Source: a virus (taxonomy: Duplodnaviria; Caudoviricetes). Taken from it: a DNA stretch of 57,432 nt. The stretch is from IMG/VR virus record IMGVR_UViG_3300036794_000037, positions 1 to 57,432 of that record; one strand, 5' to 3'. The number at the start of each line of letters is the position of its first letter. The stretch's first letter is position 1. The translations under genes and the position numbers were made by a program. Below are positions 1,887 to 57,432 of this stretch, one piece after another. The notes under the pieces were generated by a model. The model made no database searches. It worked only from the letters and a program-made list of their open reading frames with translations, and was not told the DNA's origin.

Positions 1887-1970
1887 TGGTCCCAGCGACA
1901 GGATTCGAACCTGCATGCCCGAGGGCGGAGTATTTTAAGTACTCTGTGTAAACCGTTCCACCACGCTGGG
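1887..1970 (-). tRNA. tRNA-Leu, anticodon UAA (reads UUA; bldA-type specificity)
   Basis: Acceptor CCCAGCG/CGCTGGG, anticodon arm GAGTA-CT TAA AA-TACTC, long variable arm, T-loop TTCGAAT, encoded ACCA end. Confidence 0.95.
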
Positions 1971-2051
1971 TAGTCATTTAGTTGTCTCGGGGAAGACGAA
2001 GGGCCGCCTCTCCCGTATGTACTCTCCCGGAAGTTCTCTCCGGTAAGACAC

Positions 2052-2083
2052 ACACTAGGCGAGGCGGCCCCACGTGTCAGAAC
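2052..2083 (-). promoter_or_regulatory. Class II promoter upstream of tRNA-Leu (GTTCTGACA-N17-TAGTGT)
   Basis: One of 13 copies of TTCTGAC(A/G) with a -10 hexamer at 17-18 nt. Confidence 0.65.
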
Positions 2084-2116
2084 AGGCCGTTCTCCCAGGT
2101 CAGGGACCTAGCTGGA

Positions 2117-2590
2117 TCAGTCGTGGGTGAGCACGATCTGCGTGAGCGCGTCCGACTTGAAGGTCGGGACCGATGCGGCGTTCACGACATCGACCGCCGG
2201 GACCTTCGGGAAGACCTCGATCATGCCCTGCTGGGAAACCGTGGTCGGGGGGGTGGTCAGCTCGCCCGCGAGGTTGCTGGGGGAGCCCACGGCGTACCAC
2301 GGCGCGGCGTCGTCGTATGCGGTGTGCGCCAGGACGCTGCCGGGACCGGTGAGCTGGGGCAGGTTGGCGGTCGCGGCGGACTTGGTCCCACCCAGGGTCG
2401 GGTCGTAGACGCGGACGAAGCCGGTGCGCGACGCGATGGAGCGGATGCCGACGCCGTTAGCGAAGGTGAAGGTGTCGGCGGTGCGCCCCGCGTTGGTGAT
2501 CGAGAACGTGGTGGTGTTGCTGGCACCAGCAGCGGTGGCGTAGGCGGACGCTAACGCGCCCAGCGTGGTGACTACCTCGGTGTAAGCCAT
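2117..2590 (-). CDS. Hypothetical Thr/Ala-rich protein, possibly virion-associated
   Basis: Strong GC3 bias, AGGAG SD; TTA at codon 13. Confidence 0.75.
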   Translation of the reverse strand: MAYTEVVTTLGALASAYATAAGASNTTTFSITNAGRTADTFTFANGVGIRSIASRTGFVRVYDPTLGGTKSAATANLPQLTGPGSVLAHTAYDDAAPWYAVGSPSNLAGELTTPPTTVSQQGMIEVFPKVPAVDVVNAASVPTFKSDALTQIVLTHD

Positions 2591-2844
2591 TGGAACTCCT
2601 AAGTTCCTTGGGGCAGCGACAGTATCGTTTCTTCTGCCGCCTCGTACCCAAAGGATATTTCCCCGAGCCAGGGAAATGAGAATGGCCCGTACGGGGCGCT
2701 ACAGGAGAGCAATCCCCTGCCTGACTAACCCCGTACGGGCCATTGACCGGAACGCTTACTGCCCTACGGCAGCCATCCCTTTCTCCTCCCGGCACCGACG
2801 GGGGAGACATCTGCTTCTCATGCGTGCACACATGCGGCGCTGCG

Positions 2845-2916
2845 CACGGACGACAGGATTCGAACCTGCGACAAGCGGGTTTGGAAGCCGCTGCTCTGCC
2901 ACTGAGCTACGTCCGC
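2845..2916 (-). tRNA. tRNA-Trp (CCA)
   Basis: Acceptor GCGGACG/CGTCCGT, D arm GCTC-AGTGGCA-GAGC, loop TT CCA AA (C-C mismatch closing the stem), T arm GCAGG-TTCGAAT-CCTGT. Confidence 0.85.
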
Positions 2917-3094: not shown

Positions 3095-3118
3095 CTCTTT
3101 CCTGCTTTATATCCTACG

Positions 3119-3189
3119 CTCTCTCGCCTGGATTCGAACCAGGAAAAGGCAGGTAACAACCGCCCAGTTTGCCGTTAGCTTACGAGAGA
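3119..3189 (-). tRNA. tRNA-Asn (GTT)
   Basis: Acceptor TCTCTCG/CGAGAGA, GGCGG-TT GTT AC-CTGCC, T arm CCTGG-TTCGAAT-CCAGG. Confidence 0.9.
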
Positions 3190-3325: not shown

Positions 3326-3357
3326 ACTCTACCCGGGGCTGCCCGGCGTGTCAGAAC
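3326..3357 (-). promoter_or_regulatory. Class II promoter for the tRNA cluster (GTTCTGACA-N17-TAGAGT)
   Basis: Motif copy with correct spacing. Confidence 0.75.
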
Positions 3358-3511
3358 CGGCCTTCGCGGGGAGGATCGCGATGACGAAGATCCCGAAGAT
3401 GCCTATCAGGAACCCGAGCACGAGGCCAAGGACGAGGCGGTTCTTGATGTGGCCGATGTACCCGGCGATGCCGGTCATGATCAGCCAGACGAGTACGAAC
3501 GCAGGTGACAT
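3329..3511 (-). CDS. Small two-TM membrane protein
   Basis: Hydrophobic ORF with GLVLGFLIGIFG pattern. Confidence 0.7.
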   Translation of the reverse strand: MSPAFVLVWLIMTGIAGYIGHIKNRLVLGLVLGFLIGIFGIFVIAILPAKAGSDTPGSPG

Positions 3512-3519: not shown

Positions 3520-4080
3520 TTACCTAGATTGGGCCAAGGCCCGGATGCGCGGGTCGTTGCGGAGCTTTTCCCGGGTCCTGGCCCAGAGCCATCGGTTCCG
3601 GAGAATCGGGTGCTCTCGCATTGCCTGGACCGTCCCGGGATTCCGGCTCGAAGGCTCTATTCCCTGCCAGAACCTCAAGTAGATGTACTCGCGCTGCTGC
3701 GGGCTCAGTTCCCGTAACGCGGCCATCAGCGTCGGCTCGGGAAGGTCGGGGAGGACTTCCCCCGGAATCCACGGGTTCTCATCGATCTGAAGTTCATCGA
3801 GACTCGCCACGACATCTACGGGCCGGACCCCGCGCACCGGCTGATGGCCGACAGGCTGTTCATCGCCCCAGACGAGCTTGTGCATGCGATGCCGGGCGCA
3901 GAGCTGGAGCCAGGGCATCAGCGGACCCTTCTCCGGGTCGTGCGTGTCCCGGGCTCTCCAGATGGCTATACGGCCCTCCTGGACTAAGTCCTCCAGCCCG
4001 GGGTTGTACGAGCCGCCGGGAAGGATTTCCCCGGCCGTCTTGTAGAGCCAGCGGACGTACACGTCACGCGGGTCGTTCAC
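3520..4080 (-). CDS. Phage RNA polymerase sigma factor (sigma-70/ECF-like)
   Basis: Region 2 EDLVQEGRIAIWRARDTHDPEKG; region 4 ALRELSPQQREYIYLRFWQG. Confidence 0.85.
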   Translation of the reverse strand: MNDPRDVYVRWLYKTAGEILPGGSYNPGLEDLVQEGRIAIWRARDTHDPEKGPLMPWLQLCARHRMHKLVWGDEQPVGHQPVRGVRPVDVVASLDELQIDENPWIPGEVLPDLPEPTLMAALRELSPQQREYIYLRFWQGIEPSSRNPGTVQAMREHPILRNRWLWARTREKLRNDPRIRALAQSR

Positions 4081-14860: not shown

Positions 14861-14968
14861 GACTTCAGCCTATCGATGCAGCTCAGGGCACCCATCACCA
14901 CCTAAGTTCATGGACTGGCATGGCTCGGCGTGATACGGTCTCGGCACGCCCCACGAGATGGAGTTCCG

Positions 14969-15297: not shown

Positions 15298-15465
15298 ATG
15301 GAGCGCATCGCGTACAGCATCCAGGAGTTCGCCGACATGTTAGGCGTGTCGCGTGACTTAGTGAATGACATGCTGCGGGACCAGCAGGTCAAGAGTCTCA
15401 AGGCAGGCAACCGCCGCCTCATCCCCGCGACAGCCATCGATGAGTATCTTGCGAGCGCCGAGTGA
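15298..15465 (+). CDS. xis: Excisionase-like HTH protein
   Basis: MERIAYSIQEFADMLGVSRDLVNDMLRDQQVKSLKAGNRRLIPATAIDEYL; class II promoter at 15232-15264; two TTA codons (15340, 15358). Confidence 0.85.
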   Translation: MERIAYSIQEFADMLGVSRDLVNDMLRDQQVKSLKAGNRRLIPATAIDEYLASAE

Positions 15466-37131: not shown

Positions 37132-37593
37132 CTACCCGATCTCGTCTTCATGCGGGCATACGCCATCGTTCACGCGCTTGCCGCAATTACAGTTGTAGCA
37201 GAGAAGCTCGAATCCCTCGGGGAAGTCATTCTTCACCAGCCAGATGCTGATCGCAGAAGCACCTATCTCCTTGCGGTGCTGCCTGCCGCCGCCGTTAATG
37301 TGCTCCACCGTCAAGAATTTAGGGTTAGACTCTCCGCAGCATCGGCATAATCGGCCATAGTGCTCCATGACCTTCTCCCGAGCTTCTATGCGCTGCTGGC
37401 GACCCTTCGCCCTGCGTGCTTCCTCCTTCTCCGGGTTGGCCGCGCGATACCCAGCGAGATACTCAGCCCTGCACTGCTTGCAATACTGTTGTAACCCATC
37501 GCCCCTCTGTTTGTTCTTCTGGAACTCCGATAACTCCTTCGACTTATCGCAGCGGATGCATACCTTAGCCCCGGTCACTTTGCCTCCGACCAT
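37132..37593 (-). CDS. Free-standing HNH-type endonuclease
   Basis: KVCIRC...CKQC; CRCCGE..FLTVEHINGGG...LLCYNCN; lower GC3. Confidence 0.8.
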   Translation of the reverse strand: MVGGKVTGAKVCIRCDKSKELSEFQKNKQRGDGLQQYCKQCRAEYLAGYRAANPEKEEARRAKGRQQRIEAREKVMEHYGRLCRCCGESNPKFLTVEHINGGGRQHRKEIGASAISIWLVKNDFPEGFELLCYNCNCGKRVNDGVCPHEDEIG

Positions 37594-42974: not shown

Positions 42975-44630
42975 TCATGTCAGAAGGGACAAGCCCTCAA
43001 TGGTCTGCTCAAGGAAATTTGTCAGGGACTGGGTCTGGCGTTCCATCTCCTTGACGCCCTTCTTGTCCCCGAGGAATGCACGACTAGTCTCCCGCTTCCC
43101 CGACTGGACATCGAGCATGCGCGCCTCCACTGTCCCCGAAGTCACGAGATTGTGGATATAGACGGTCTTGAAGGTCGAGCTGGCCCGGACGTGGCGGGCG
43201 TTAATCTGGTCAGCTTTCCCGCTCGACCAGGCAGGGTCGTAGTTAATGAGGTGGTCCGCGACCGGCAGGTCCACGCCGTGGCTCCCCGCGTGCGAACTCA
43301 GGAACACCTTCGGCCCGGACTTCGCCTTGAACTGAGCCAGGGCGCTAGCCTTGTCGTGCGGGTTCATCGCGCCGTGGAACTGGACAGACTCCTGGCCGAT
43401 CTCCTCCGCGAGGATCTCCAGCATCCCCCGGTACTTGGTGTAGACCAGGACCTTGCTCCCCGAGTTGGTCAGTTCATTTAGCTGCTCGATCAGGTGACCA
43501 AGTTTTGGGGAGCCGATTATCTCATCCAGGGCACCGGACTGCCAGAGGTCATAGCAGTACCTGGACCCCTTCTGCTTGGCCTCGGGAAGGCCCCGGGTCT
43601 CCTCATAGTCCATGCCGGACATGATGATCAGGTCGGGGTGGTCGAGGAGCTGTTCCATTGCGGTGTGGACGCACATGATTTTCCCGACCGCGCTCTTCTC
43701 GTCGGAGTGCCCCGCGTAGTAGGCCGCGACGTCGAAGCCGCCGCCGTTCTTGGCCTGCTGCTTGATCCGGTCGTAGAGATCCATGCCCATCTGCTCGTAG
43801 ACCGCCCGCGCGTCTTCCCCGAGATCGACATGCCATTCGTCGATGACGGCGTCCGGCATGTGCTTGGCGACCTCGGGCTGCTCTTTGGTGAGCCGGTGCA
43901 TTACCGGGGCCATCTTCTCCAGCAGGAGGTCGATGTTCTGGTACCCGAGGACAATCCCCCGGTCGTCCCGGACGATATACGTCGCGTCGAAGAGATCCCA
44001 GCGGCCCAGGATGGTGTCGTCCACCCACTGCATGATGCTGAACAGCTCCTCCGGCCGACCATTCTCCAGCGGGGTGCCGGTCAGGCCAATCCGGTAAGGG
44101 CTGTCCAGGTACTTCTTGAGCTTCTTCGAGCGCTGGGCCTTGAATGACTTGATGGCCGTGATCTCGTCGGCGATCACCAGGTCCGGCTCGATGCGGCGTA
44201 AGTACCGGTAGTCCGCGAGTACGTCCTCATAGGACACGATGACGTACTCCGTGGCCTCCCCGACTTCAGCCCACTGCCTCTTCCTGTCGTCGGCGGCGGA
44301 GTATTGGTGGGTATTCCGCTGGAAGGGCTTGCCGTCGATCACGATGCAGTCGGGGCTGGCGGGGATGACCACCGTCTGCTGCTTGAGCTTGTGCTTCTTC
44401 TTCGGCAGGTCGGTGAACTGCGCGAGGCTCTGCGCCCACTGGTACTTGAGCGCGGACGGGCAGACGATGACGCACAGCTTGGCCTGGCCGATGCCCAGCA
44501 TCTCCTCCGCGACCGCGATGGACATGGGCGTCTTCCCCGTGCCCTGCTCAGCCGCGATTAAGAATCTCCCCCGGGCCACTGCCCGATCGACAGGCTCTTC
44601 CTGGTACCCATGCAGGTCTCCAGCGAACAC
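42975..44630 (-). CDS. SNF2-family helicase
   Basis: EQGTGKT, IADE, LTGTPLEN, GVDL, YDPAWS..Q..R. Confidence 0.9.
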   Translation of the reverse strand: MFAGDLHGYQEEPVDRAVARGRFLIAAEQGTGKTPMSIAVAEEMLGIGQAKLCVIVCPSALKYQWAQSLAQFTDLPKKKHKLKQQTVVIPASPDCIVIDGKPFQRNTHQYSAADDRKRQWAEVGEATEYVIVSYEDVLADYRYLRRIEPDLVIADEITAIKSFKAQRSKKLKKYLDSPYRIGLTGTPLENGRPEELFSIMQWVDDTILGRWDLFDATYIVRDDRGIVLGYQNIDLLLEKMAPVMHRLTKEQPEVAKHMPDAVIDEWHVDLGEDARAVYEQMGMDLYDRIKQQAKNGGGFDVAAYYAGHSDEKSAVGKIMCVHTAMEQLLDHPDLIIMSGMDYEETRGLPEAKQKGSRYCYDLWQSGALDEIIGSPKLGHLIEQLNELTNSGSKVLVYTKYRGMLEILAEEIGQESVQFHGAMNPHDKASALAQFKAKSGPKVFLSSHAGSHGVDLPVADHLINYDPAWSSGKADQINARHVRASSTFKTVYIHNLVTSGTVEARMLDVQSGKRETSRAFLGDKKGVKEMERQTQSLTNFLEQTIEGLSLLT

Positions 44631-45616: not shown

Positions 45617-46211
45617 CCTCGAATCGACTGAGATAGGCCACGGCCTTCTTCAGATGGTCGGCGGTATCTCCGAGCTGGCCGATGGCACGGTTGCACCTGC
45701 GGCACAGGACTCCACGGACCTTGCCGCTCGCATGATCATGGTCCACGCACATGGATTCCTGGTCGCCGCCGCAGATCTCGCACTTGCCATCTACAGCCTC
45801 CACCATGGACAGCCACTCATCCAGGGTGATTCCATATCTGGTGCGCAGCTCATAGTCACGGGCATAACCGGTGCGCTCTCTAAATGCGCGCTGGTACTGG
45901 TTAACCGTGTCCCGGAAAGTCCCGGCCTCTTCTTCCCGCTGACGCCATGCCTGCCAGCGCTCCCGCTGTCGTGACTTGACACACGTTTCGTCCTTGCAGA
46001 ACCTTAACGCCGCGCGGGCGTCCGCCGGAAGCTCGCGTCCGCAGCTTTCACAGGTACGACCAGCACCACGGCTGGCAGCAGTTTTCTCCCGGTAGTTCTT
46101 GGCCGAGCGCTCCCGGCTCCTCTGAACCTTGCACGGCTCGCACAGCTTACGATTCGGGTGAACGTTCCGCATAAAGCGCCCGCACCCGTCGCATAACTTC
46201 GACACGTCCAT
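45588..46211 (-). CDS. Free-standing endonuclease VII-type homing endonuclease
   Basis: YGITLDEW...KCEICG...VDHDHASGKVRGVLCRRCNRAIG; lower GC3. Confidence 0.85.
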   Translation of the reverse strand: MDVSKLCDGCGRFMRNVHPNRKLCEPCKVQRSRERSAKNYREKTAASRGAGRTCESCGRELPADARAALRFCKDETCVKSRQRERWQAWRQREEEAGTFRDTVNQYQRAFRERTGYARDYELRTRYGITLDEWLSMVEAVDGKCEICGGDQESMCVDHDHASGKVRGVLCRRCNRAIGQLGDTADHLKKAVAYLSRFEGAAQEVVVV

Positions 46212-46683
46212 TGGGGGTCACCACCTCTCCGATACCTGCACCGGATATCAGCTTCCAGCAAGAGAAGCATGGCTCATCGGTGCAATACAGCGTCGCACCC
46301 TCGCACTTGTCTCTTTCCGAGTATATCAAAGCATTAGCTTCAGCGTGGCAGCTAACACAGTTATCATAGGAGCTGTATTCGGCAGCGCTGTCGGGGCAGG
46401 GCCACACCTTCCCGCAGATGCACCGTATGGGAATGATCCCGTGAACCGACACGAGATACTCCTCCGCCATATCGTCCAGGCGCGTAGCAGCATAGTGACG
46501 CCCCCGGGGGCAGGCACCGGCCGTCAGGCAGCCCGGCAGCCCGGCAGGGGAACCATTGTAGCCAGTTGACACAATGCGATTACCTCTAGTAATGACAGCA
46601 CCGACCTGACGACGGGTGCAGTCCGCGCGGGTCGCGACAGCAACCGCAATCCCTAAGAAGTACTCATCCCATGTCGGCCTCAT
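46147..46683 (-). CDS. dCMP deaminase
   Basis: RPTWDEYFL, RRQVGAVI, TGYNG, HAEANA, PCFSC. Confidence 0.9.
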   Translation of the reverse strand: MRPTWDEYFLGIAVAVATRADCTRRQVGAVITRGNRIVSTGYNGSPAGLPGCLTAGACPRGRHYAATRLDDMAEEYLVSVHGIIPIRCICGKVWPCPDSAAEYSSYDNCVSCHAEANALIYSERDKCEGATLYCTDEPCFSCWKLISGAGIGEVVTPNGRVEVMRRVRALYAERSPES

Positions 46684-46946
46684 CGCCGACCCCTTCCGTT
46701 CCTGCCCCAGGTCGGCTGGATGGAGCACATGCCGTGGCACTTCACCAGGCTCTTAGCCTCATGAACCTTGAACGGGTTACCGCACCCCGTGCAGCGGGCA
46801 TAGGTGATGAGCGGCATGACCTCCTGGACGTACCACGTGGTAGACGGCCTGCTCCGGGCCATGATGTCTGCCCCACGGACGCCAAGTGACGTTAAGTGAC
46901 GCCACTCCTCGGCATAGTCGGTCGGGTCGAACTTGCGGGCGTTCAT
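46680..46946 (-). CDS. Hypothetical Zn-binding protein
   Basis: CTGCG...CHGMC. Confidence 0.55.
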   Translation of the reverse strand: MNARKFDPTDYAEEWRHLTSLGVRGADIMARSRPSTTWYVQEVMPLITYARCTGCGNPFKVHEAKSLVKCHGMCSIQPTWGRNGRGRR

Positions 46947-48229
46947 TAGTAGTCAGCCTCTTCCTCGTCGTCGTTGATGTCTTCGCCTACCGGGTCGAAG
47001 GAGCAGTCCTTCCACATCCAGATGCCCCGGAGGGTGGGCAGGTAGCCCGTTCGCGCCCTCGTGTTCGTCATGGTGTTGATGCCGGTGTCCGGGTCGAAGT
47101 CGAGCGTGAACATGTAGAAGCACGCCATGGTCAGTCCGGTGCCGCCGACGATGCTGTTGTCGTCGAAGCCCGACCCCTTCTTCCCCGAGCGGGCCTGCTT
47201 CTCCCGGATCTGCATCGTGACCAGCGTGCTTATGCCCCGTCGCAGGGTCAGCTCAGCGATCTCGCGGGAGAGGTTGTCGTTCCCTTCCCAGTTCGCCCCG
47301 CTCTTCCCGGTAGCCCGGTCGATGAGGAAGTAGAACCCGTCCACCACCACGTAGTCCGGCTCGTACCGGTCGATGTCCGACTCTAAGTCGGTCAGCGTGT
47401 ACGCGCTGGTCGGCTGGACGATGTGGAGCTTCCCGTCAAGGCCGCGCCGCTCCTGCATCTCCAGGAGCTTCGACCGCTGCTTGTCCGACAGCCGACCGCG
47501 AACGTAGTCGCTGTGGTCGATGCCTGCCGCGTGGCAGTCGAACCGGTCGGCGATAGAGTCGGCCGTGATCTCCACGGAGACGAACAGCACGTTCCAGCCG
47601 TCCTCATGGGCTGCCAGCGCGCTCTTGATAGCGTGGGTGGTCTTCATGGCCTTCGAGCGCCCGAGGTAGACGATGAGCTGTCCGGGCTGGAACCCGGGGA
47701 AGGCATCGTCAAGGGTCGGGTGGCCGGTTCGGATGCCCGGTGTCTCCGTCCGCCCGAACTTGTCCTCCACGTCGTACTCGTCGGAGTCCAGCACGAGGTG
47801 GACCGACGGGTTGACGCCCTGGTTGCGCAGATTCCTGGCCGTCTCGTCGATGAGCTGCTCAGCCTGGTCGAACTTCCCCGCGTCGAATAAATCGATGAAG
47901 TCCGAGCCGACGACTTCGAGCTGGCGGATCTTCCGCTCGCGGACAGCGACGTCAAGCACCTCGTCCGGCGTCATCGTCGGCCTCGGGACCTTCATCGTCT
48001 CCGGGGGGAAGGACCGCTCGAAGTAGTCCCGGCTTGGTGCCTGGTGGTGCTTCTCGTAGTGCTTCAGCATGAACCGGTACGCGTCGGTCCCGGTCTCGCT
48101 GAATACTGCCGTCTGCGAGAGGTCGTCCTTGCTGCCGAGCCATGCCAGGTCGAACCTGGACTCGATGAACTTCTTCAGGGTTCCCGGGTCGTCTAAGACG
48201 GTCGCCAGGATCTGCATGCCGGTGTCCAA
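46946..48229 (-). CDS. dnaB: DnaB-like replicative helicase
   Basis: TGHPTLD..G..PGQL, GRSKAMKT (Walker A variant), FVSVE, VVVDG; three TTA codons. Confidence 0.85.
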   Translation of the reverse strand: MDTGMQILATVLDDPGTLKKFIESRFDLAWLGSKDDLSQTAVFSETGTDAYRFMLKHYEKHHQAPSRDYFERSFPPETMKVPRPTMTPDEVLDVAVRERKIRQLEVVGSDFIDLFDAGKFDQAEQLIDETARNLRNQGVNPSVHLVLDSDEYDVEDKFGRTETPGIRTGHPTLDDAFPGFQPGQLIVYLGRSKAMKTTHAIKSALAAHEDGWNVLFVSVEITADSIADRFDCHAAGIDHSDYVRGRLSDKQRSKLLEMQERRGLDGKLHIVQPTSAYTLTDLESDIDRYEPDYVVVDGFYFLIDRATGKSGANWEGNDNLSREIAELTLRRGISTLVTMQIREKQARSGKKGSGFDDNSIVGGTGLTMACFYMFTLDFDPDTGINTMTNTRARTGYLPTLRGIWMWKDCSFDPVGEDINDDEEEADY

Positions 48230-50212: not shown

Positions 50213-50394
50213 TAGCTCGTCACCTCCCGCAGTTTCTCCATGCTCCGGGCCTGCGGGACGTGCAGCCCACGGTGCCAGCCCGAGAGCTGGCCGTGGTGGA
50301 CGCCGGTCTCCCGGCTGGCAGCGGCGTACGTTCCCCCGCTGTTGTGTAAGAGCGCGGACACGCGTGCCTGCGCCTCCTCTTCCCGGTGATTCAT
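50212..50394 (-). CDS. Small XRE-like HTH protein
   Basis: TYAAASRETGVHHGQLSGWHRGLHVP. Confidence 0.7.
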   Translation of the reverse strand: MNHREEEAQARVSALLHNSGGTYAAASRETGVHHGQLSGWHRGLHVPQARSMEKLREVTS

Positions 50395-51344
50395 CAGTTC
50401 TCCTCACTGAAGCCGCGTGATGCGGCCTCGTTCTTGGTCAGGAACTCGACCTTCTGCCCGGCGGCGGGCTTGCCCCGGCCACGGCGCTTCAGGATGGTTC
50501 CGTCCTCGCCCACGAGGTAGGCGTGGGTCTCTTCCTGGGGGCGGCCGAGGTCACCCTTCAGCGCGGCCAGCGCGCCCTCCAGGGCGACGATCATGACCGC
50601 CTTGAACTGGTCGGTGCTGGCGTGCTCGAAGAAGTCCACGCGGACCTGCGGGTCGCTCTGGGCCTCCGGCGTCCCGAGGATCTTGTTGACGTCCAGCCCC
50701 GGCGGCGGCGTGTCGATCGCGGGCGGGACGGCCTCCACATACGGCGGCTCGAACGGCGGGTCGATCTCCGGGTGGCCGACGGTCTTGTCCGGGTCCTTCC
50801 CGCGCGGAACGCCCCTGGTCCTGCGAGGCTCGGAGGGCTCTTCTGCGGCCTTCTCCGGCTCGGGGGTGGTCGTGGTCCGCTGACGCCGCCTCGGACGCTC
50901 AGCGGGCTCCTCCGGCTCTTCTGCGGCCGGTTCTGCGGGAGAGGTTCCCCCGGTGTATTCATCCAGCCCGGCGGCCAGGTCCAGGACCTTCACACCAGAC
51001 TCGCGGGCCTGCTTGATCAGCGCCTCGGTCGTGTTGTCCATCTCGGCTTCCCCGAGAACGACGATCAGGTACCTGTCCGTCGTCTCGTGGTCGAGCAGCG
51101 CCTCCACGAGCTTGCTGGCGGAGGCGGTCTCGAACGGGTCCTCGTCGCCCTCGTCGTCCGCCCAGTCCTCCATGAGGTAGCCGACGATGTTCGCGAGACC
51201 GGGCTGGTCGGCCTTGCTGATGGCGGACGGGACGAAGAACCCGGTGACCTCGGTGTCGTCGGTGATCCAGGTGTTCAGTAACGACTTCGTGTTGCGCGGG
51301 GAAGATTCCCCCGGCCCGGCGAAGGCGATGACTCTGCTTGCCAC
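50394..51344 (-). CDS. Hypothetical protein with a Pro/Glu-rich linker
   Basis: Class II promoter at 51374-51406; single TTA at codon 22. Confidence 0.75.
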   Translation of the reverse strand: MASRVIAFAGPGESSPRNTKSLLNTWITDDTEVTGFFVPSAISKADQPGLANIVGYLMEDWADDEGDEDPFETASASKLVEALLDHETTDRYLIVVLGEAEMDNTTEALIKQARESGVKVLDLAAGLDEYTGGTSPAEPAAEEPEEPAERPRRRQRTTTTPEPEKAAEEPSEPRRTRGVPRGKDPDKTVGHPEIDPPFEPPYVEAVPPAIDTPPPGLDVNKILGTPEAQSDPQVRVDFFEHASTDQFKAVMIVALEGALAALKGDLGRPQEETHAYLVGEDGTILKRRGRGKPAAGQKVEFLTKNEAASRGFSEEN

Positions 51345-51410: not shown

Positions 51411-51896
51411 CTACTTGTTGATGCGGTAGAACGCGGTTACGTTCCAGCTAGTTCCCGGGAAATATGGGGTCCACCCGATGCGCTGCCCGGTCGTGTGCGC
51501 CCCGTAGGTGTGGTGGTACCAGGTCGTGCAGAACTCGACATGCCCGGAGCCGTAGAACGCGAGGTCCCCCCGCTGCGGGTACTTGACCTTCGTCACGTAC
51601 CCGTGGGACACACCGTAGGAGAGGATGTCGTAGGTGGTGCGGAGCTGGGACGGCCAGGAATACCCGGCAGCCCGGACGGACCAGTAGACCAGGCCCGAGC
51701 AGTCGAGCGAGACGGTGGGATAGTACGCCCGCGCGTCGTACCAGTCGCCCGCCTTGGTCTCGGCCTTGGCCAGTACCTTGACGCCCACGGTCTCGGTTGA
51801 CATGGTCGCAGCGTGCGCGGGGGAAGTGGTGAATGCCGCCGTGGTGCCCAGCAGCCCGCCGAGCACGGCCAGGCCGGTGATAGTTCGCTTGATCAT
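51411..51896 (-). CDS. Secreted NlpC/P60 peptidoglycan hydrolase
   Basis: Signal peptide ending AHA; DCSGLV, GDLAFY, GHV. Confidence 0.9.
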   Translation of the reverse strand: MIKRTITGLAVLGGLLGTTAAFTTSPAHAATMSTETVGVKVLAKAETKAGDWYDARAYYPTVSLDCSGLVYWSVRAAGYSWPSQLRTTYDILSYGVSHGYVTKVKYPQRGDLAFYGSGHVEFCTTWYHHTYGAHTTGQRIGWTPYFPGTSWNVTAFYRINK

Positions 51897-51913
51897 GAAG
51901 TCCTCCTCGGTCT

Positions 51914-51955
51914 CCTTACAAGATCGAGTTTACACGAGAGTCACGCAGATAGCAA
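51914..51955 (-). promoter_or_regulatory. Class I promoter (TTGCTA-N17-TAAACT)
   Basis: Repeated motif. Confidence 0.8.
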
Positions 51956-51999
51956 AACAGGCCGCCCCCGGAGGGACAGCCTGCTGGCGTCTGTGGGTG

Positions 52000-52272
52000 T
52001 CAGTGCTCCCAAAGGTCGAGCTGGTAGCCGCGCTCGGGGTCGTAGTGGACCACGTTGCCCGCCCGCGTCCCGGCGTTGATGTTGTCGAAGACGTGGAACA
52101 GGAAGTCCTGGGCCTCGTCGGGCTCGTACCGCTCGACCTCCACGAGGTACGCGAGCAGCGCGTTGAAGGACCGGGCGTGCAGGTTCGGGATCTGCCGCTG
52201 CGTCCCCCGGACCTCCGGCCGCTGGTCCTGGCCCGCCAGGAACGTCGTGACGACGTGCGCGTCGTGCTGCAT
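52000..52272 (-). CDS. Hypothetical protein
   Basis: AAGGAG SD; high GC3. Confidence 0.6.
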   Translation of the reverse strand: MQHDAHVVTTFLAGQDQRPEVRGTQRQIPNLHARSFNALLAYLVEVERYEPDEAQDFLFHVFDNINAGTRAGNVVHYDPERGYQLDLWEH

Positions 52273-52460
52273 CAGCTCTCCTTCTCGGCAGCGCCCTTGC
52301 ACTGCGGGATCTTATGCGAAAAGGTCACCGGGGCGTTCCCGTCTATGCCGTCGCGGTAGTACGCGTAGTCCCGCGTTGCGACGGACTTGATGAGCACCGC
52401 CCCGCAGCGCTCGCAGGTCCGCTCTTCGTTCCCAGGTCCTTTGTCCCACTTATGCCGCAT
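52272..52460 (-). CDS. Small Cys/His protein
   Basis: HKW...CERCG. Confidence 0.55.
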   Translation of the reverse strand: MRHKWDKGPGNEERTCERCGAVLIKSVATRDYAYYRDGIDGNAPVTFSHKIPQCKGAAEKES

Positions 52461-52651
52461 CAGTTCTCCTCCAGCGGGGTGAGCCCGGTGCGCTCCGAGA
52501 GCGACTGGACCTTGACGTCCTTGGTGAAGTAGGCCCCGGCGCGCTTCTTGCCGTCCAGCAGGACCTTCACCGACTCCGCGTTAAGCCCGGGGGTGCGGGG
52601 AGCCACCGTGCCGGTCTTCCCGTTCACCGTTACTCGCGTTCCTGCGTCCAT
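52460..52651 (-). CDS. Small SH3-like hypothetical protein
   Basis: GAGGAGG SD after the class I promoter. Confidence 0.6.
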   Translation of the reverse strand: MDAGTRVTVNGKTGTVAPRTPGLNAESVKVLLDGKKRAGAYFTKDVKVQSLSERTGLTPLEEN

Positions 52652-52669
52652 CGTGTCCTCCTCGTCACT

Positions 52670-52712
52670 GCCTTACAAGACTGACTTTACACGAGATGCA
52701 CGGGGAGTGCAA
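52670..52712 (-). promoter_or_regulatory. Class I promoter (TTGCAC-N17-TAAAGT)
   Basis: Repeated motif. Confidence 0.8.
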
Positions 52713-52722
52713 GCTGGGCGGA

Positions 52723-53040
52723 CTAGAATCTTGGAATTCTTCGGCCGGGTCCGGGCATGGCCTCTGGCCTGGGGCGACGTCGCGCGGGGCGGACGGCCTC
52801 GTAGACAGCCCGCCAGTCCCATGCGTTGGGCGGCTCAATGCGGGAGAGGACGGTCAGCAGTACCAGTCCCCCCGCGCCTGCAAGCGCTTCTAAGGCACGC
52901 GGGGGAGCGTAGGTCAGACCGTACGCGGAACCCCCGTACAGGAGCAGGGCGAGCCTGTCAGGCACCCGTACGGGGGCGAGGAAGCGAAGGGTGGTCCAGC
53001 ACCAGAATGCGGCCAGGGCGATGAGTAAGACAGTCTCCAT
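52723..53040 (-). CDS. Membrane protein, holin-like candidate
   Basis: Three hydrophobic segments, basic C-terminus; TTA at codon 5. Confidence 0.5.
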   Translation of the reverse strand: METVLLIALAAFWCWTTLRFLAPVRVPDRLALLLYGGSAYGLTYAPPRALEALAGAGGLVLLTVLSRIEPPNAWDWRAVYEAVRPARRRPRPEAMPGPGRRIPRF

Positions 53041-53050
53041 GGCGGGGAGT

Positions 53051-53224
53051 CTAGTTCCCGTTCGCCCTGGCGTTCGCCTCGTAGGGGCTGAGCCCTTCTT
53101 CCCGGGCGGCCAGGTACCTCGCGGCGGCGGCCTTCCGTTCCTTGTCGAACGTCTCGTTGCGAAGCCCTACGACATCGTCCACGATGTCGCGGGCGAGTTC
53201 GTCGGTCATGGTCCAGTAGGTCAT
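53051..53224 (-). CDS. Small hypothetical protein
   Basis: MTYWTMTDELARD..., coupled ORF. Confidence 0.5.
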   Translation of the reverse strand: MTYWTMTDELARDIVDDVVGLRNETFDKERKAAAARYLAAREEGLSPYEANARANGN

Positions 53225-53550
53225 CAGAGATCCCTTCCCCGGAATTCTCCGGGCTTGCCGAGCAGCTCGACCACCTTGGAGGGCAGCTCGTCGTAGGTCG
53301 AGAAGCGGTTCCGGCCCCCGGTGTAGTCCGAGTCAGACTCGGCCGTGCGGTAGAAGGCGTCGTTCGGGCGGGTGCCGTGGTTGTGGTCCGTGTTGACGTA
53401 GACGATGCGGCCAGACCCGGGGTCGATCACGAACCCGGAGCAGCCCATCAGCGCGCCGTTGATGCGGACGTTGCGGAGCTTGACCACCAGGTCGGGCTGG
53501 AGCTTGAGGAGCTGGTTGCGGAGCTTGGTCATCGCGAGTGTCGTGGTCAC
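53224..53550 (-). CDS. Hypothetical protein
   Basis: AGGAGG SD; GCSGFV...YRTA....DYTGGRN motif. Confidence 0.7.
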   Translation of the reverse strand: MTTTLAMTKLRNQLLKLQPDLVVKLRNVRINGALMGCSGFVIDPGSGRIVYVNTDHNHGTRPNDAFYRTAESDSDYTGGRNRFSTYDELPSKVVELLGKPGEFRGRDL

Positions 53551-53606
53551 GGTTCCTCCTACGGGTAGGGGCGGGGGAGATTCCCCCGCCCCGGTCCTGC
53601 TGGTGA

Positions 53607-54146
53607 TCAGAAGTTGTAGTCGTAGAACTCGTGGCGACCGTGGCCGATCCTGGAGCCGCCGGGGGTGGTCCAGCCGCGCTTGGTGTAGCGGGCGGTGAAG
53701 GTCGCGCCCTCGGGGTCGGCCTCGTAGGTGTAGCTCTGCTCGTGCTGGTTGACCGTGTGCCCGACGAAGCCGCCGAGGATGGTCTCCGGCTTGAAGTCGG
53801 GGCTCAGGGTGGCGGTGTCGCGCTGGATGGTGATGGTCTTGCCGCTCGGGGAGACCTTGATGACCGTGTAGGCGTGGGAGTCGGTGTACAGCCGCTCGGT
53901 CGCGCCCTCGCCGACCGCGAAGGACTCGTCCCGCTGGAGGTGATCGCGCTCGGGGCGGGTGATCGCCAGGCCGTCCTCGAACCGGATGTTCCGGTAGAAG
54001 TTCTGCTCGGCCTTGTCGAAGGAGATCTCGTTCTCGCGGACGATCCGGCGCTGGCCCTCGAAGATGACCGGGGTTCCGGCTCGCAGGTCGCGGGCCTCGA
54101 CGGAGCGGGTGATGTCGGTGGCGCGGGCGGCGGTCTTGGTGCTCAT
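53607..54146 (-). CDS. Hypothetical probable early protein
   Basis: Extreme GC3; class I promoter at 54172-54214. Confidence 0.75.
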   Translation of the reverse strand: MSTKTAARATDITRSVEARDLRAGTPVIFEGQRRIVRENEISFDKAEQNFYRNIRFEDGLAITRPERDHLQRDESFAVGEGATERLYTDSHAYTVIKVSPSGKTITIQRDTATLSPDFKPETILGGFVGHTVNQHEQSYTYEADPEGATFTARYTKRGWTTPGGSRIGHGRHEFYDYNF

Positions 54147-54171
54147 CTTGGGTTCCTCCCCTTGTTCTTCT

Positions 54172-54214
54172 TCCTTACAAGTATGAGTTTACACGAGGTG
54201 CGCGCCTCCCGCAA
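54172..54214 (-). promoter_or_regulatory. Class I promoter (TTGCGG-N17-TAAACT)
   Basis: CCTTACAAGTATGAGTTTACACGAG is identical to the copy at about 20679. Confidence 0.8.
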
Positions 54215-54219
54215 CCCCC

Positions 54220-54486
54220 TCAGAGAAGAATGTCTACGGTGTAGTGCTCGTCCCCGTACTCGTCCCGCCAGGACTGGCGGTCAGTGCTGACGGACAGGAC
54301 GGTGCGGACGTCCCATCCGACATAGCCGGGGACCTTGACCTGGTTCCCGATGTATGCCGCCCGCTTCTGGTGCTTGTCCGGGCGGTACGTGCCCTCCAGC
54401 GAGAGGGTGCGCTCGAAGGTCTCGTCCTCGGGACGGACCTCGGTGAGGGTGCCGTTGACGTAGATCTGGATGTTCCGGGGGTCCAT
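54220..54486 (-). CDS. Hypothetical protein
   Basis: MDPRNIQIYVNG... Confidence 0.6.
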   Translation of the reverse strand: MDPRNIQIYVNGTLTEVRPEDETFERTLSLEGTYRPDKHQKRAAYIGNQVKVPGYVGWDVRTVLSVSTDRQSWRDEYGDEHYTVDILL

Positions 54487-54494
54487 GGTTCGCC

Positions 54495-54641
54495 CTACTT
54501 TCCGGAGAGGTGCTCGGAGCGGCCGGTCTCGTGAACGATGATCGTTCCGCCAGGACCCGCCTCGGTCCACCAGGTGATCTCGTCGTCCGCGTGGCTGCGG
54601 GTCCAGCGCGACTGGTCTGCCTTGCTGTTGAACTCGGTCAT
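54495..54641 (-). CDS. Small hypothetical protein
   Basis: GAGGAGG SD after the class I promoter. Confidence 0.5.
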   Translation of the reverse strand: MTEFNSKADQSRWTRSHADDEITWWTEAGPGGTIIVHETGRSEHLSGK

Positions 54642-54665
54642 CTCAGGTCCCTCCTCGGCCTTGCT

Positions 54666-54708
54666 GCCTTACAAGACTGAGTTTACACGAGATGCGCACC
54701 GGGGTCAA
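54666..54708 (-). promoter_or_regulatory. Class I promoter (TTGACC-N17-TAAACT)
   Basis: Repeated motif. Confidence 0.8.
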
Positions 54709-54711
54709 CTC

Positions 54712-55818
54712 CTACTGGGAGGGCGGAGAAAAATATTCTGGGTCGGCCGCGCTGATCGACAGCGGGGTCTGCCTAGTCATGATGTCGTTGACGACTACCT
54801 GGCCAGGTTTCCAGTTCTCATACCAGTAAGACCTGCTCAGGCCGGGTGTTCCGTCCCACCCGTAGTCGGGGTTGCCGAAGCTTCCGTCGAAGTAGCTCCC
54901 GACGATCTCCCCCGATTCGATCAGGGTCTCGGAGAGCTGTACCGTCAGCGGGAAGGTGACGTCGCTGTTATAGATCGGCTGGACATAGAGCTGCACCGTG
55001 GACGCCGGGGCGGTGAAGGTCAGCTGGGGCTGGTAGGTTCCGGCCGCGAGGTCGAGCCCGGTCGCTCCGGGGATACCGCCGACCTGGGTGCCGACGACGA
55101 GCGCGACGTCCTGAATCCCGGCCGCCGTGAAGGCGGCCTCCAGGCTGGCCGTGAACTGGTCGCCGAGGATGAGGTCCGGCACGTTGAGGTAGACCGAGTC
55201 GGCAGGGCTGTGGAGGGTCACCAGACCGGTCGCGGAGATGGTCGCGGAGCCTACGGTCGTCCATCCCGCTGCGGATATCTGGAAGTTCGGGTTCGGCGCG
55301 TAGTTCAGGCGGTTCGGCTTGATGATGGCCGTGACCGTCCGGGGGAGCTGGTAGGGGCTCGGGGTGGGCGCGTCGTCTAGTCCGTCGGCTGAGCTGAGCG
55401 GCATGACCTCTGCCTGCACGCCGGTCAGGTTCTGCTGTCCGCTCGCAGGGACGTTCGCGAACTGGAAGCCGACCGCCATGTAGGCAGCACGCGGCCACAG
55501 GCGCACCCCCCCGCTGACGTGATAGTCACGCGGGGGGTAGAAGATGCCCCACGGCCTGGAGTACCCGGTGCTGGCACTCTGGAGCCCGGCAGTGGACCAG
55601 CCCGCATAGGTCTGAGCCGGATCGGGGTCGCCTGCCTGCCACATCGCGAAGTCGGACAGCGCGGCTGACGGGGTGACCTGCTCGGCCAGGCCAATCGATC
55701 CGGTGACATCCGTTACGCCCGGAGAAAGGTAGACCTGGAAATCTTCCCCGGGGGAGACGACCTGGGTAATGTGCCCCTCTGTGAGCGTCCCGCCGATCAG
55801 AACAATCTGCTGCGTCAC
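54712..55818 (-). CDS. Baseplate/minor tail protein
   Basis: KPNRLNYAPNPNF carbohydrate-binding-like start; SYFDGS...W.GTPGLSRSYWY. Confidence 0.65.
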   Translation of the reverse strand: MTQQIVLIGGTLTEGHITQVVSPGEDFQVYLSPGVTDVTGSIGLAEQVTPSAALSDFAMWQAGDPDPAQTYAGWSTAGLQSASTGYSRPWGIFYPPRDYHVSGGVRLWPRAAYMAVGFQFANVPASGQQNLTGVQAEVMPLSSADGLDDAPTPSPYQLPRTVTAIIKPNRLNYAPNPNFQISAAGWTTVGSATISATGLVTLHSPADSVYLNVPDLILGDQFTASLEAAFTAAGIQDVALVVGTQVGGIPGATGLDLAAGTYQPQLTFTAPASTVQLYVQPIYNSDVTFPLTVQLSETLIESGEIVGSYFDGSFGNPDYGWDGTPGLSRSYWYENWKPGQVVVNDIMTRQTPLSISAADPEYFSPPSQ

Positions 55819-57432
55819 TATGCCACCGTCCGGTCATTCATCATTAATCCATGGCTGGTGGCTGCGGAGTTCACGCTGCTTGTCGCGCTCGCTACCTGCA
55901 CGCCGTTGCGCAGCACGGTGATGGAGCTGCCGCTCAGGGTGACGGTCATCCGGTCACCGTCGGAGAACGGGGTCGAGTGGGTGGCGACGTCGGTCCAGGT
56001 CGATCCCGAGACGTACCGCAGCCCGGTTCGATCGCAGCGCCAGTACGAGGTGTCGCTGCTCCAGCGGAAGACCAGGCCCTGGGCCTCGTTGCCAGCCGCC
56101 ACGGCGGTCGAGTCCGGGGAGGACCGGAATGTCACGCCGAGGCTGGTGTTCGCCTGCCCCGTCACCAGGGCATAGCTTCGTGTGCCTGCCGTCTGCGGGT
56201 AGGCCATGCCAGACGCGGTCGTCAGCGTGCCCCCGTGGGAGGCCCAGTTATAGTTCCCGTCGTCCGTCCGCCTCCCCGCGATCGTGGAGGAATACTGCGT
56301 GGCTCCCCCAGTGGCGGTGTAGGGCACCGGAGCGGTGAGGGTCAGCCCGGTCGGGACGACCTTCCCCATCACCTGCGTGAAGCTGTGGGAGAACCCTGCC
56401 CCGGACCCGGTGAGGCTGACGTACACGCTGGCCCAGTTCGCGCCCTCCGGCGGGGTGCCGCTGACCGTAGCGGTCGTGGTGCCGTTCGCTGATGCCTGTC
56501 CGATCAGCGTGGTGCCGTTGTACCAGGAGACCTGCGCGGTGATCTGGGCGGCCCCGGTCGTGAACTGGATCAGCCCGGACCATGCACCGTTCCCCCCGCT
56601 GCTCTCGGCCATCACGCGCCAGCCGTAGAGCGTGCCGGGCGTCAGCCCGGTGAGCTTCATGCCAGCCGACCCGGTCGTGCCACCGCCCGTCTGATCAATC
56701 ACCTTCGCCCCGCTCAGGGAGTCGCCCTGGTAGACCTGGACGCGGTATGAGGTCGCTCCGGATACGCCGGTGAAGTTGATCTGCGCAGAGGTGTTAGAGA
56801 TGTTGGTGGTCTTGGCGTTGGACGGGATGCCCAGAGTTACTTCCGGGGCCACCGCTGCCGCTTTCTTCGCCCTGGACTTCCTGGGCTTCGGGGCCACGGC
56901 GGACACCGCACCAGCCACGCCTGCCGTGCCTGCGGATGCCTGGTAGGTATAGCTGTAGTTCGCTACCACCGGGAAGAGCGGGCTGGTCCAGCTCGCAGGG
57001 ATGGACGTCGGGTTGAATACCCCCGGGATGAGGTTGGCCGTCGTCGCCCCCGATCCTTCGGCCGGGACGTAGTAGTCCACCTCTACAGACGCCGAGGTGC
57101 CTGCGGTCAGGGTGACCGTCCCGGTCTGGGCGGTGGTTGACTGGGCGGCCCAGTTGTCGATGACCGTCCGGCCGTTGACCAGGGCGCGGAACCCTCCCCC
57201 GGGAGACTGGAGAGTGAACCGGTAGGTTCCGCCGACGGTGGGCGTGAACTTCGTCGTCCACTTCGCGGACCAGGACGTGTTGCCCACCGACTGCGCGGGC
57301 TGCGTACCTGCCCAGGTGAAGCTCACGGCGGAGTCCGCCCGCGTGTACGCGCTCGGACCGGTCATCGTGGCGTTCGCCCAGAACGTGGCCTGCCACGGAC
57401 CCACGGCAGCCGTGCCGCTCAGCCCTACCATG
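55818..57432 (-). CDS. Tail/baseplate protein with PA14 and FN3 domains (5' end truncated)
   Basis: PA14: VSFTW..WSAKW...GTYRF...VNGRTVIDNW; FN3: GLTPGTLYGWRVMA...GAWS. Confidence 0.75.
   Translation of the reverse strand, partial: MVGLSGTAAVGPWQATFWANATMTGPSAYTRADSAVSFTWAGTQPAQSVGNTSWSAKWTTKFTPTVGGTYRFTLQSPGGGFRALVNGRTVIDNWAAQSTTAQTGTVTLTAGTSASVEVDYYVPAEGSGATTANLIPGVFNPTSIPASWTSPLFPVVANYSYTYQASAGTAGVAGAVSAVAPKPRKSRAKKAAAVAPEVTLGIPSNAKTTNISNTSAQINFTGVSGATSYRVQVYQGDSLSGAKVIDQTGGGTTGSAGMKLTGLTPGTLYGWRVMAESSGGNGAWSGLIQFTTGAAQITAQVSWYNGTTLIGQASANGTTTATVSGTPPEGANWASVYVSLTGSGAGFSHSFTQVMGKVVPTGLTLTAPVPYTATGGATQYSSTIAGRRTDDGNYNWASHGGTLTTASGMAYPQTAGTRSYALVTGQANTSLGVTFRSSPDSTAVAAGNEAQGLVFRWSSDTSYWRCDRTGLRYVSGSTWTDVATHSTPFSDGDRMTVTLSGSSITVLRNGVQVASATSSVNSAATSHGLMMNDRTVA

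Follow-up and report, generated by a model that had tools for sequence, protein, structure and literature searches.

Start-proximal TTA codons and a phage-borne tRNA-Leu(UAA) in a soil actinophage: a candidate bldA-like translation checkpoint

Control of gene expression through a rare codon and the single tRNA that reads it is a textbook trait of Streptomyces development. The subject here is a stretch of phage DNA, the entire IMG/VR virus record IMGVR_UViG_3300036794_000037 (57,432 bp, hereafter the window), which encodes its own tRNA-Leu(UAA) and carries in-frame TTA codons that crowd near the starts of its genes. The rare UUA codons of Streptomyces sit towards the beginnings of genes, "where the energy wastage ... 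would be minimal", and this bias is reported to be absent outside the Streptomycineae (excerpts of PMC10732093 and PMC4255298); 2-3% of Streptomyces genes carry TTA, and Streptomyces phages are said usually to lack UUA (excerpt of PMC10732093). The scarcity of UUA has been suggested as a barrier to phages (excerpt of PMC2000904), nine TTA genes have been noted in phage CW39 (excerpt of PMC13350457), and the UUA of the phiHau3 terminase has been proposed as a host-state sensor for the lysis-lysogeny choice, acting via translational bypassing (excerpt of PMC10732093). We found no report of a phage-borne tRNA-Leu(UAA) coupled to 5'-biased TTA codons in the full-text literature, subscription journals and supplements lying outside that search.

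Members of the phage family that lack a UUA decoder are almost free of TTA, and the tRNA carrier has reintroduced the codon selectively, as single codons within roughly the first 36 and mostly in genes that lie behind promoters of one type, termed class II below. The set includes the replication module (DnaB and its neighbours, and SNF2), recA, RNA ligase, dCMP deaminase, a sigma factor and a putative excisionase-type helix-turn-helix (HTH) gene. For the high-GC members, the comparisons show in-frame selection holding TTA near the start of particular genes. On balance we think it probable, with ample room for doubt, that the arrangement is a phage-autonomous, bldA-like translation checkpoint close to the gene start. 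Translation of the TTA genes would then depend on a UUA decoder, as a second requirement beside transcription.

TTA codons and a UAA-decoding tRNA in the window

Genes were called with a script of our own that combines codon-usage log-odds, a Shine-Dalgarno term and a non-overlap rule, and because TTA is scored as neutral in its second version, the choice of start is unbiased either way. In-frame TTA occurs 62 times among 16313 codons, in 44 of the 105 called genes (42%), all of them within uninterrupted reading frames and among ordinary codons rich in GC at the third position (GC3). The first-pass annotation, made from the sequence alone, had spoken of about 40 such genes, often with a single TTA, which agrees with this count and with the 31 of the 44 that have just one. 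Relative to position-specific base composition, TTA has an observed/expected ratio of 1.99, the highest among the A/T-ending codons; comparison counts are TTG 25, CTA 19, CTT 68, TTT 11 and CAA 20.

Codons 2-36 make up 22.5% of all codons and hold 37 of the 62 TTA (odds ratio (OR) 5.1, p=3e-10). The next most 5'-biased codon reaches p=0.003, the other A/T-ending codons pooled place 23.9% of their occurrences in the same interval, and CTA, ATA, AAA, AGA and TTG have no 5' bias. The same crowding is seen when TTA is counted as a share of leucine codons (37/285 early vs 25/955 later; OR 5.6, p=2e-10). Codon 36 was settled on as the limit once the window had been inspected, and the relatives were then analysed with that same limit. 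Per 1000 codons, TTA stands at 13.3 in codons 2-6, 7.9 in 7-12, 11.9 in 13-24 and 7.9 in 25-36, then at 0.8 in 37-48, 0.9 in 49-72, 3.3-3.6 in 73-200 and 0.6 beyond, and the other A/T-ending codons are raised in codons 2-6 only. A generic 5' unfolding bias is a poor fit, because TTA remains at 8-13 per 1000 as far as codon 36. The possibility, raised in the first-pass annotation itself, that TTA might be no more 5'-biased than other AT-rich codons was checked and was not borne out.

The crowding is specific to the reading frame. TTA in frame 0 runs at 10.1 per 1000 early against 2.0 later, and the TTA trinucleotide has no 5' excess in the +1 and +2 frames (1.63 vs 1.68 and 1.91 vs 1.36 per 1000, respectively). 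It also persists when genes are started at the longest open reading frame (ORF; 35/70, p=8e-8) or at the next downstream start (27/52, p=1e-5).

Two candidate sources of the pattern were rejected. That TTA forms part of a DNA or RNA motif is ruled out by the frame result together with a search around the TTA codons, which found no nucleotide motif or flanking consensus. That start codons were called too far upstream is ruled out as well, since other AT-rich codons are not enriched past codon 6 and the alternative start rules keep the bias.

The tRNA-Leu(UAA) has a regular class II tRNA fold with a 7-bp acceptor stem, a long variable arm, A73, the loop CUUAAAA and an encoded CCA. Two promoter-like motifs recur in the window. 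The class I motif is TTGAC-N17-cgTGTAAACt, after which come a conserved leader (CTTGTAAGGCAG) and a Shine-Dalgarno site; 10 copies are on the minus strand and a single copy is on the plus strand. Class II consists of CTGTTCTGACA-N17/18-TAGnnT, with about 13 copies, and in several of these an ATG follows 6-7 nt past the -10 element, which suggests that the transcripts are leaderless. As the first-pass annotation had stated, the tRNA-Leu(UAA) lies behind a class II motif, which was found 82 nt upstream. The tRNA region is arranged as follows.

1887..1970, minus strand: tRNA-Leu(UAA), 84 nt (ARAGORN; Rfam RF00005, 52.6 bits)
2052..2085, minus strand: class II motif (CTGTTCTGACA-N17-TAGTGT) upstream of the tRNA-Leu, from a motif scan
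2117..2590, minus strand: 157-aa gene between the tRNAs; TTA at codon 13
2844-2916: tRNA-Trp(cca) (ARAGORN; confirmed by Rfam)
3118-3189: tRNA-Asn(gtt) (ARAGORN; below the Rfam gathering score)
3326..3359, minus strand: class II motif ahead of tRNA-Asn, tRNA-Trp and gene 2117-2590

The tRNA-Asn has a mismatch in the D arm, and its anticodon stem is drawn with six pairs by ARAGORN. In a blastn comparison with phages, the tRNA-Leu showed only a generic likeness to tRNA-Leu of phages of Gram-negative bacteria, and its identity to 401 sampled actinobacterial genomes does not exceed 80%. The exact anticodon-arm pattern was met in IMG/VR only in two unrelated low-GC contigs, neither of which has a tRNA call.

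The window encodes PolA, SNF2, a DnaB-like helicase, primase, RecA, a tyrosine integrase, a sigma-70 region 2 protein, Pup, RNA ligase, WhiB, endonuclease VII, a Cas4-like exonuclease, a TGT-like protein, dCMP deaminase, a GntR-type HTH protein and an HTH_17 protein. The principal TTA-bearing genes are these.

3520..4080, minus strand: sigma-70 region 2 protein, a small sigma factor (Pfam PF04542, 2e-9); TTA codons 32 and 122
15298..15465, plus strand: HTH_17 protein (Pfam PF12728, 2e-9), in our reading probably excisionase-type; downstream of class II motif 15230; TTA codons 15 and 21
34203..34580, minus strand: WhiB-like regulator; TTA codons 58 and 104
34984..36099, minus strand: RecA (Pfam), apparently leaderless from class II motif 36140; TTA codon 43 (30 from the conservative start 36060)
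37575..39527, minus strand: DNA polymerase A (PolA); TTA codons 99 and 108
39528..40388, minus strand: 286-aa gene downstream of class II motif 40448; TTA codon 5, the aligned position being TTA in the relative L015
42314..42946, minus strand: RNA ligase, apparently leaderless from class II motif 42988; TTA codons 4 and 15
42975..44630, minus strand: SNF2 helicase; TTA codons 24 and 144
46147..46683, minus strand: dCMP deaminase, missed by the caller (GC3 0.63 over the longer ORF 46147-46740); TTA codon 10
46946..48229, minus strand: DnaB-like helicase; TTA codons 12, 114 and 282
50394..51344, minus strand: first gene after class II motif 51408; TTA codon 22

Of the 11 genes called from 50394..51344 through to SNF2, 9 carry a TTA no further than 26 codons from the start. 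Early TTA also occurs in four ORFs that the caller missed or started later, namely the dCMP deaminase, 52723-53040 (codon 5), 14297-14605 (codon 4) and the 24455 gene (codon 7 from ATG 25006), and in PolA and WhiB the codon lies further inside. The region 45807-46740 around the dCMP deaminase has a lower GC3 (0.63-0.71) and no called gene, and a candidate zinc-ribbon ORF, 45588-46211, overlaps the deaminase gene.

The codon positions listed in the first-pass annotation were reproduced for RNA ligase, DnaB (12), SNF2 (24), the sigma factor (32), RecA (43, from ATG 36099), the dCMP deaminase, the 24455, 14297 and 52723 genes, Pup (19), the 25088 gene (3), the 23640 gene (5) and the gene at 18606-19145, its "peptidase" (11 and 24), and TTA is likewise present in PolA, primase, the Cas4-like gene and WhiB. 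Some of its gene names fared less well. The "endolysin" at 5749-6771 does have TTA at codons 5 and 15, but PHROGs and Pfam give only an fn3 match and the name is unconfirmed; the "tube-like" gene at 10970-11419 has TTA at codon 4, but its gp19 match is below threshold and the name is equally unconfirmed. The protein labelled SSB could not be identified, the guessed gene 39528-40388 having no family match in PHROGs or Pfam.

Relatives: recurrence of early TTA and carriage of the tRNA

The window (GC 64%, CheckV completeness 51%) is about half of a temperate actinophage genome of roughly 110 kb, from soil, and is, to judge by its proteins, a distant relative of Streptomyces phages of the BRock/LuckySocke type. 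Its PolA is 42-43% identical to those of the cultured Streptomyces phages LuckySocke, BRock, Alone3 and GiJojo, with genomes of 113-116 kb, and its 418-aa protein (19399..20655) shares 42% identity with the counterpart in Zuko; the nearest cultured relatives, at about 42% amino acid identity, infect Streptomyces. A scan of genome contigs found one related prophage in Terracoccus, without TTA. Morphogenesis and lysis genes lie mostly outside this half-genome, and structural genes lie outside the window. Among sequencing runs, the stretch is present only in a soil metagenome, probably its source, and in no RNA run. A megablast of 20 kb of the window against GenBank phages gave no match, and a scan of IMG/VR with PolA as a single protein gave no relative; an alignment of PolA homologues was needed, and retrieved 79 IMG/VR loci, on which the same gene caller was run. 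Closer PolA relatives (61-82% identity), one of them on a 109-kb contig, are found only in Logan assemblies and stand outside this comparison set.

Crowding of TTA at gene starts recurs in several of these loci. In L009 (GC 66%), 12 of 14 TTA lie in codons 2-36 (p=1e-8), and early TTA account for 18 of 33 in L007, 16 of 36 in L008 and 13 of 27 in L014; when five loci are pooled, codons 2-36 account for 53 of 111 TTA (OR 4.1, p=2e-12), no codon is more strongly 5'-biased than TTA, and the profile has the same shape as in the window, decaying after about codon 48. Most relatives have 0-0.6 TTA per 1000 codons. Counts are near nil in L005 and L006 (1 each), L028 (2), and L016-L021 and L027 (0-1), and stand at 0 in 6425 codons of BRock and 2 in 12798 for positions 1-50 kb of LuckySocke, despite a GC3 of only 0.55.

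The recurrence is a matter of particular genes. Among orthologue pairs, early TTA is found for 20 of 23 when the window gene has TTA in its first 45 codons and for 4 of 21 when it does not (p=6e-6, over four lineages, lineages and genes not being fully independent), so that conservation of 5' TTA in related phages, which the first-pass annotation had proposed looking for, is found at the level of the gene. The same genes carry early TTA across lineages, mostly at different codons. For instance, early TTA in RecA, in window coordinates counted from the start at 36060, lies at codon 30 in the window, 15 and 32 in L007/L008, 13 and 19 in L009, 19 and 36 in L014, and 4 in L062 and in L005/L006/L028. 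In DnaB it lies at codon 12 in both the window and L028, at 18 in L007/L008, 31 in L009 and 26 in L014, and in SNF2 at codon 24 in the window, 14 and 18 in L009, and 6 and 44 in L014. In the L028 lineage, 6903 codons contain just two TTA, one at codon 14 of recA and the other at codon 12 of dnaB. At 11 of 21 alignable TTA sites of the window, leucine, usually encoded by CTN, is present in half or more of the orthologues that avoid TTA. Frame specificity, codon specificity, recurrence in orthologues at shifting positions and persistence in recA and dnaB of a TTA-poor lineage together support the view that the 5' TTA codons are under selection at the level of translation.

A separate cluster of TTA is seen in PolA, at aligned codons 99-141 inside the exonuclease domain, in most of the TTA-using lineages compared. 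The codons are 99 and 108 in the window, 119 in L009, 111 in L062, 111, 128 and 141 in L014, and 128 in L007/L008; PolA of L007, L008 and L062 has TTA outside this interval too.

Among relatives, TTA use follows carriage of a tRNA with the UAA anticodon. Per 1000 codons, the carriers have 3.8 (window), 5.4 (G407), 2.75 (G410) and 6.5 (G412), and five non-carriers (G408, G411, G413, G414 and LuckySocke 1-50 kb) have 0.09-0.6 (Mann-Whitney p=0.01), consistent with the earlier suggestion that the phage tRNA and the TTA codons belong together. G407 (L172; 9.6 kb, GC 64%) was found by a scan with the protein adjoining the tRNA (gene 2117-2590); in its homologue of that gene codon 13, by the homologue's own numbering, is likewise TTA, and after this gene come a tRNA-Met and a 74-nt tRNA with the UAA anticodon (8830-8903), which has no long variable arm and an unusual C33, and 9 of its 14 TTA, in 2603 codons, lie in the first 36. 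G410 (L013) and G412 (L025) are complete, carry Leu(taa) and Ile(tat), and have 19 TTA in 6915 codons and 43 in 6585, respectively. The tRNA of G410 is also of the 74-nt form, and the four UAA-anticodon tRNAs, two of them short, are about 53-75% alike.

Among the non-carriers, G408 is a complete relative of 112,017 bp with terminal repeats whose sole tRNA is Asn, and has 3 TTA in 34,024 codons against 197 CTA and 177 ATA. G411 has only Leu(caa) and Leu(tag) and 4 TTA in 6694 codons, G413 and G414 have no tRNA and 1 in 6159 and 3 in 6026, and the first 50 kb of LuckySocke hold 30 tRNAs, neither Leu(taa) nor Ile(tat) among them, with 2 TTA and 0 ATA in 12,798 codons. ATA tracks Ile(tat) likewise, with 96 ATA in G410 and 45 in G412, where this codon, unlocked by the phage tRNA-Ile(UAU), has no 5' bias.

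Promoter classes, a possible mechanism and rival explanations

The distribution of TTA differs between the two promoter classes. Among first genes behind a promoter, none of 10 has TTA for class I and 8 of 12 for class II (p=0.002; 9 of 12 if the 24455 gene is begun at the start that its promoter supports). The first-pass annotation had described the class I genes as free of TTA, and the blocks it named, partly chosen after the fact, do lack TTA throughout their 2764 codons, the remaining 13549 having 62 (p=2e-5); when class I operons are drawn by contiguity, they hold 2 in 3386 against 60 in 12927 (p=1e-4), in genes 7098-7244 (codon 12) and 25088-25357 (codon 3), and a class I promoter likewise stands upstream of ORF 52723-53040 (TTA codons 5 and 50). 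Class I genes are poorer in non-TTA A/T-ending codons as well (0.096 vs 0.143). After scaling for this general depletion, 10.6 TTA are expected and 2 seen (Poisson p=0.002). The contrast between the classes is real but not specific to TTA, as the comparison with other rare codons given below makes plain.

Neither motif class is conserved in the relatives, so regulons could not be compared across them, and terminator-like sites in the window are not in excess over shuffled controls, which leaves operon ends uncertain. The features on the TTA-poor side are as follows.

15533..17553, plus strand: DUF2637-like gene (weak match) and tyrosine integrase, downstream of class I motif 15490; without TTA
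16318-17553, plus strand: the tyrosine integrase itself (Phage_integrase match); without TTA
19399..20655, minus strand: 418-aa gene with very strong codon bias (GC3 0.95), downstream of class I motif 20701; without TTA
51411..54708, minus strand: block with four class I promoters (54689, 54195, 52693 and 51936) and small genes, including an NlpC/P60 protein; called genes without TTA, the TTA-bearing 52723-53040 being an uncalled ORF

Several further observations attach to these regions. The class I leader is conserved at 54660-54708, 54166-54214, 20672-20720 and other class I sites, and about 7 nt after TGTAAAC comes CTTGTAAGG, a near-repeat of TGTAA across the -10/start region, which could be a repressor operator or a leader RNA element. 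Just one intrinsic terminator hairpin in the window is convincing; it stands at 25077-25054 on the minus strand, has 10 pairs with TTTT after them, and separates a class I operon from class II motif 25047. The interval 14615-15465, with a minus-strand GntR-type HTH gene opposite small plus-strand genes, is a likely immunity region; next in order are a class II motif and the HTH_17 gene, and beyond them a class I motif with DUF2637 and int. Within 18606-19324, which lies downstream of the 418-aa gene, a Pup-like protein (Pfam 3e-19) is encoded directly upstream of a 179-aa protein whose PHROG match is described as enoyl-CoA hydratase/carnithine racemase-like, with TTA in both genes. The TGT-like gene (queuine tRNA-ribosyltransferase family) and an 11-gene block, at 20781-22250 and 26058-31544, have no start-near TTA, and may be a DNA-modification module exempt from the pattern.

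A start-proximal checkpoint might work as follows. Without charged tRNA-Leu(UAA), a ribosome arriving at UUA would stall with the nascent chain still inside it, and for that reason failed attempts at translation would be cheap; a stall in promoter-proximal genes may also silence downstream genes by polarity. Two inputs would be needed, transcription of the gene and supply of a UUA decoder, the latter coming either from the phage tRNA, which stands behind the same promoter type, or from a bldA-type tRNA of the host, and a gate of this sort would make the passage into lytic development, out of the early or lysogenic state, more abrupt. Class I genes without TTA, integrase included, would be translatable at once, and the phage, by means of this same tRNA, would escape its host's shortage of UUA decoding. 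Integrase (Int) has no TTA whereas the excisionase-type HTH gene has two, and the sigma factor and WhiB are TTA-bearing also, a distribution that fits a switch, though the sample is small.

A number of points weigh against the checkpoint. That translation of the TTA genes is conditional at all is something we infer from sequence, and gene calls and start codons come from our own script and not from a standard caller. Of the 62 TTA, 25 lie beyond codon 36, as in PolA. Among low-GC carriers the 5' bias is weak (6/19 in L013, p=0.15; 17/43 in L025, p=0.016), so that tRNA carriage alone does not give the pattern, and L055 has no 5' TTA bias. A tRNA scan of the TTA-using fragments L007, L008, L009, L014 and L062, which are 15-32% complete and of which the first four show the strongest 5' bias, gave one odd 146-nt match that ARAGORN does not call. 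Both motif classes look like ordinary actinobacterial promoters of the sigma-70 type, a further TTGACG-N17-TAGTTT site near 5680-5650 means that the promoter list is incomplete, and the assignment of one class as early is our presumption. Class I genes deplete CTA, AAA, CAA, AGA and CCA about fivefold (6 vs 119), and their depletion of TTA (2 vs 60) cannot be told from that of these other rare A-ending codons (Fisher p=1.0); the absence of TTA from class I genes, as first described, is therefore not particular to this codon, and the early-vs-late contrast may be general codon optimisation of early or highly expressed genes. Furthermore, the tRNA shares its promoter type with the TTA-rich operons, which argues for co-expression of the tRNA and its client genes and against the delayed lock that had been proposed at first.

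Among other explanations, plain codon compensation with no regulatory role, in which the tRNA lets the phage use TTA although the host decodes it poorly, strikes us as improbable though far from negligible. TTA would stand near starts as the only AT-rich codon with a good tRNA supply, lowering mRNA structure at the start, an effect that matters most for leaderless class II transcripts; and indeed tRNA and codon co-vary across relatives, TTA is densest in codons 2-6, where other AT-ending codons are raised too, several apparently leaderless class II genes have TTA at codons 4-7, and phage tRNAs matching late-gene codons are a known idea (excerpts of PMC12482277 and PMC10264068). Against this, the enrichment reaches codon 36-48 whereas the generic effect ends at codon 6, one TTA barely alters local GC content, the L028 lineage keeps its only two TTA in recA and dnaB, 5' TTA status is gene-specific and conserved between lineages, and ATA, similarly unlocked by a tRNA in G410 and G412, has no such bias. 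A constitutive translational ramp, with TTA as a slow early codon that spaces ribosomes and limits collisions independently of any change in tRNA level, we regard as very unlikely. Ramps have been proposed to span about the first 36-48 codons, which is roughly the extent of the enrichment, and the TTA-bearing genes are of many functions, but a ramp should accept any rare codon, and CTA, ATA, AAA, AGA and TTG have no 5' bias; there is usually just one slow codon per gene, and the genes with the strongest codon bias (class I, and the 418-aa gene) have no TTA.

Slimmer still is the chance that the tRNA serves lysogeny or counter-defence, TTA use being a side effect, either because the phage integrates into, and so destroys, a host tRNA-Leu(UAA) gene that its own tRNA complements, or because the phage tRNA replaces a host tRNA cut by an anticodon nuclease. 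A tyrosine integrase and an RNA ligase gene are present, tRNA-dependent lysogeny is described for actinophages (excerpt of PMC10865867), and the tRNA(UAA) of G407 has C33, altered loops being said to evade tRNA-targeting defences (excerpt of PMC10264068). However, the phage tRNAs and the flanks of int share no attP-like core of 10 nt or more, the longest common word being a 9-mer, and neither the frame-specific and gene-specific placement of 5' TTA nor its presence in recA and dnaB of a lineage nearly free of TTA is predicted. Beyond the checkpoint itself, a wider proposal can be made, speculative and to our minds unlikely, that this actinophage clade with a private 'bldA' carries a portable switch between integration, with TTA-free Int on one side, and excision, replication and late transcription on the other, where the excisionase-type protein, DnaB, RecA and the sigma factor bear TTA; if expressed from the prophage, the tRNA could also unlock the TTA regulon of the host and so alter development and antibiotic production in lysogens.

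The covariation of tRNA and codon offers a rule for metagenomic phages, in which carriage of a UAA-anticodon tRNA predicts TTA use. If the start-proximal checkpoint is true, one tRNA gene and one codon per gene would make up a compact two-input translation switch. It would open to direct experiment the ways in which phages tolerate or take advantage of rare UUA decoding in their hosts, and might supply a tool for timed expression in high-GC bacteria.

Comparison with known systems

The phage resembles the case of tRNA-dependent lysogeny described by Guerrero-Bustamante and Hatfull 2024 (excerpt of PMC10865867) in that a temperate actinophage carries both a tyrosine integrase and a tRNA of its own, but there is no sign here of an attP core in a tRNA-Leu gene, and the placement of codons is not addressed by that mechanism. 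Codon compensation is resembled in that a phage tRNA matches a codon that is used here and avoided by relatives without the tRNA, and in that early-type genes avoid rare A-ending codons; the in-frame crowding of one codon in the first 36 or so, conserved gene by gene at shifting positions, is not predicted by it.

With phiHau3 the likeness is a proposed use of UUA decoding by a Streptomyces phage, although there, according to the excerpt of PMC10732093, two internal UUA followed by non-coding inserts are found in one gene and a phage tRNA is not mentioned, whereas the window has a phage tRNA and, close to the starts of many genes, TTA within intact frames. Most relatives conform to the TTA avoidance of Streptomyces phages, and the window phage and a few relatives do the opposite, with a decoder. 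This lineage thus reverses the avoidance by means of its own decoder, with the codon placed where a stall would be cheapest, in replication, recombination and regulator genes, and in the same genes in diverged relatives.

The likeness to bldA itself lies in the use of one rare leucine codon and one dedicated tRNA, with a single TTA near the start (excerpts of PMC10732093 and PMC4255298), and in the presence of regulators among the carriers (the sigma factor, WhiB and the putative excisionase-type HTH protein). Unlike the Streptomyces system, both the tRNA and the TTA genes are phage-borne, the codon is found in 42% of genes against the 2-3% given for Streptomyces in the excerpt cited above, and it sits in core genes of replication and recombination instead of accessory genes.

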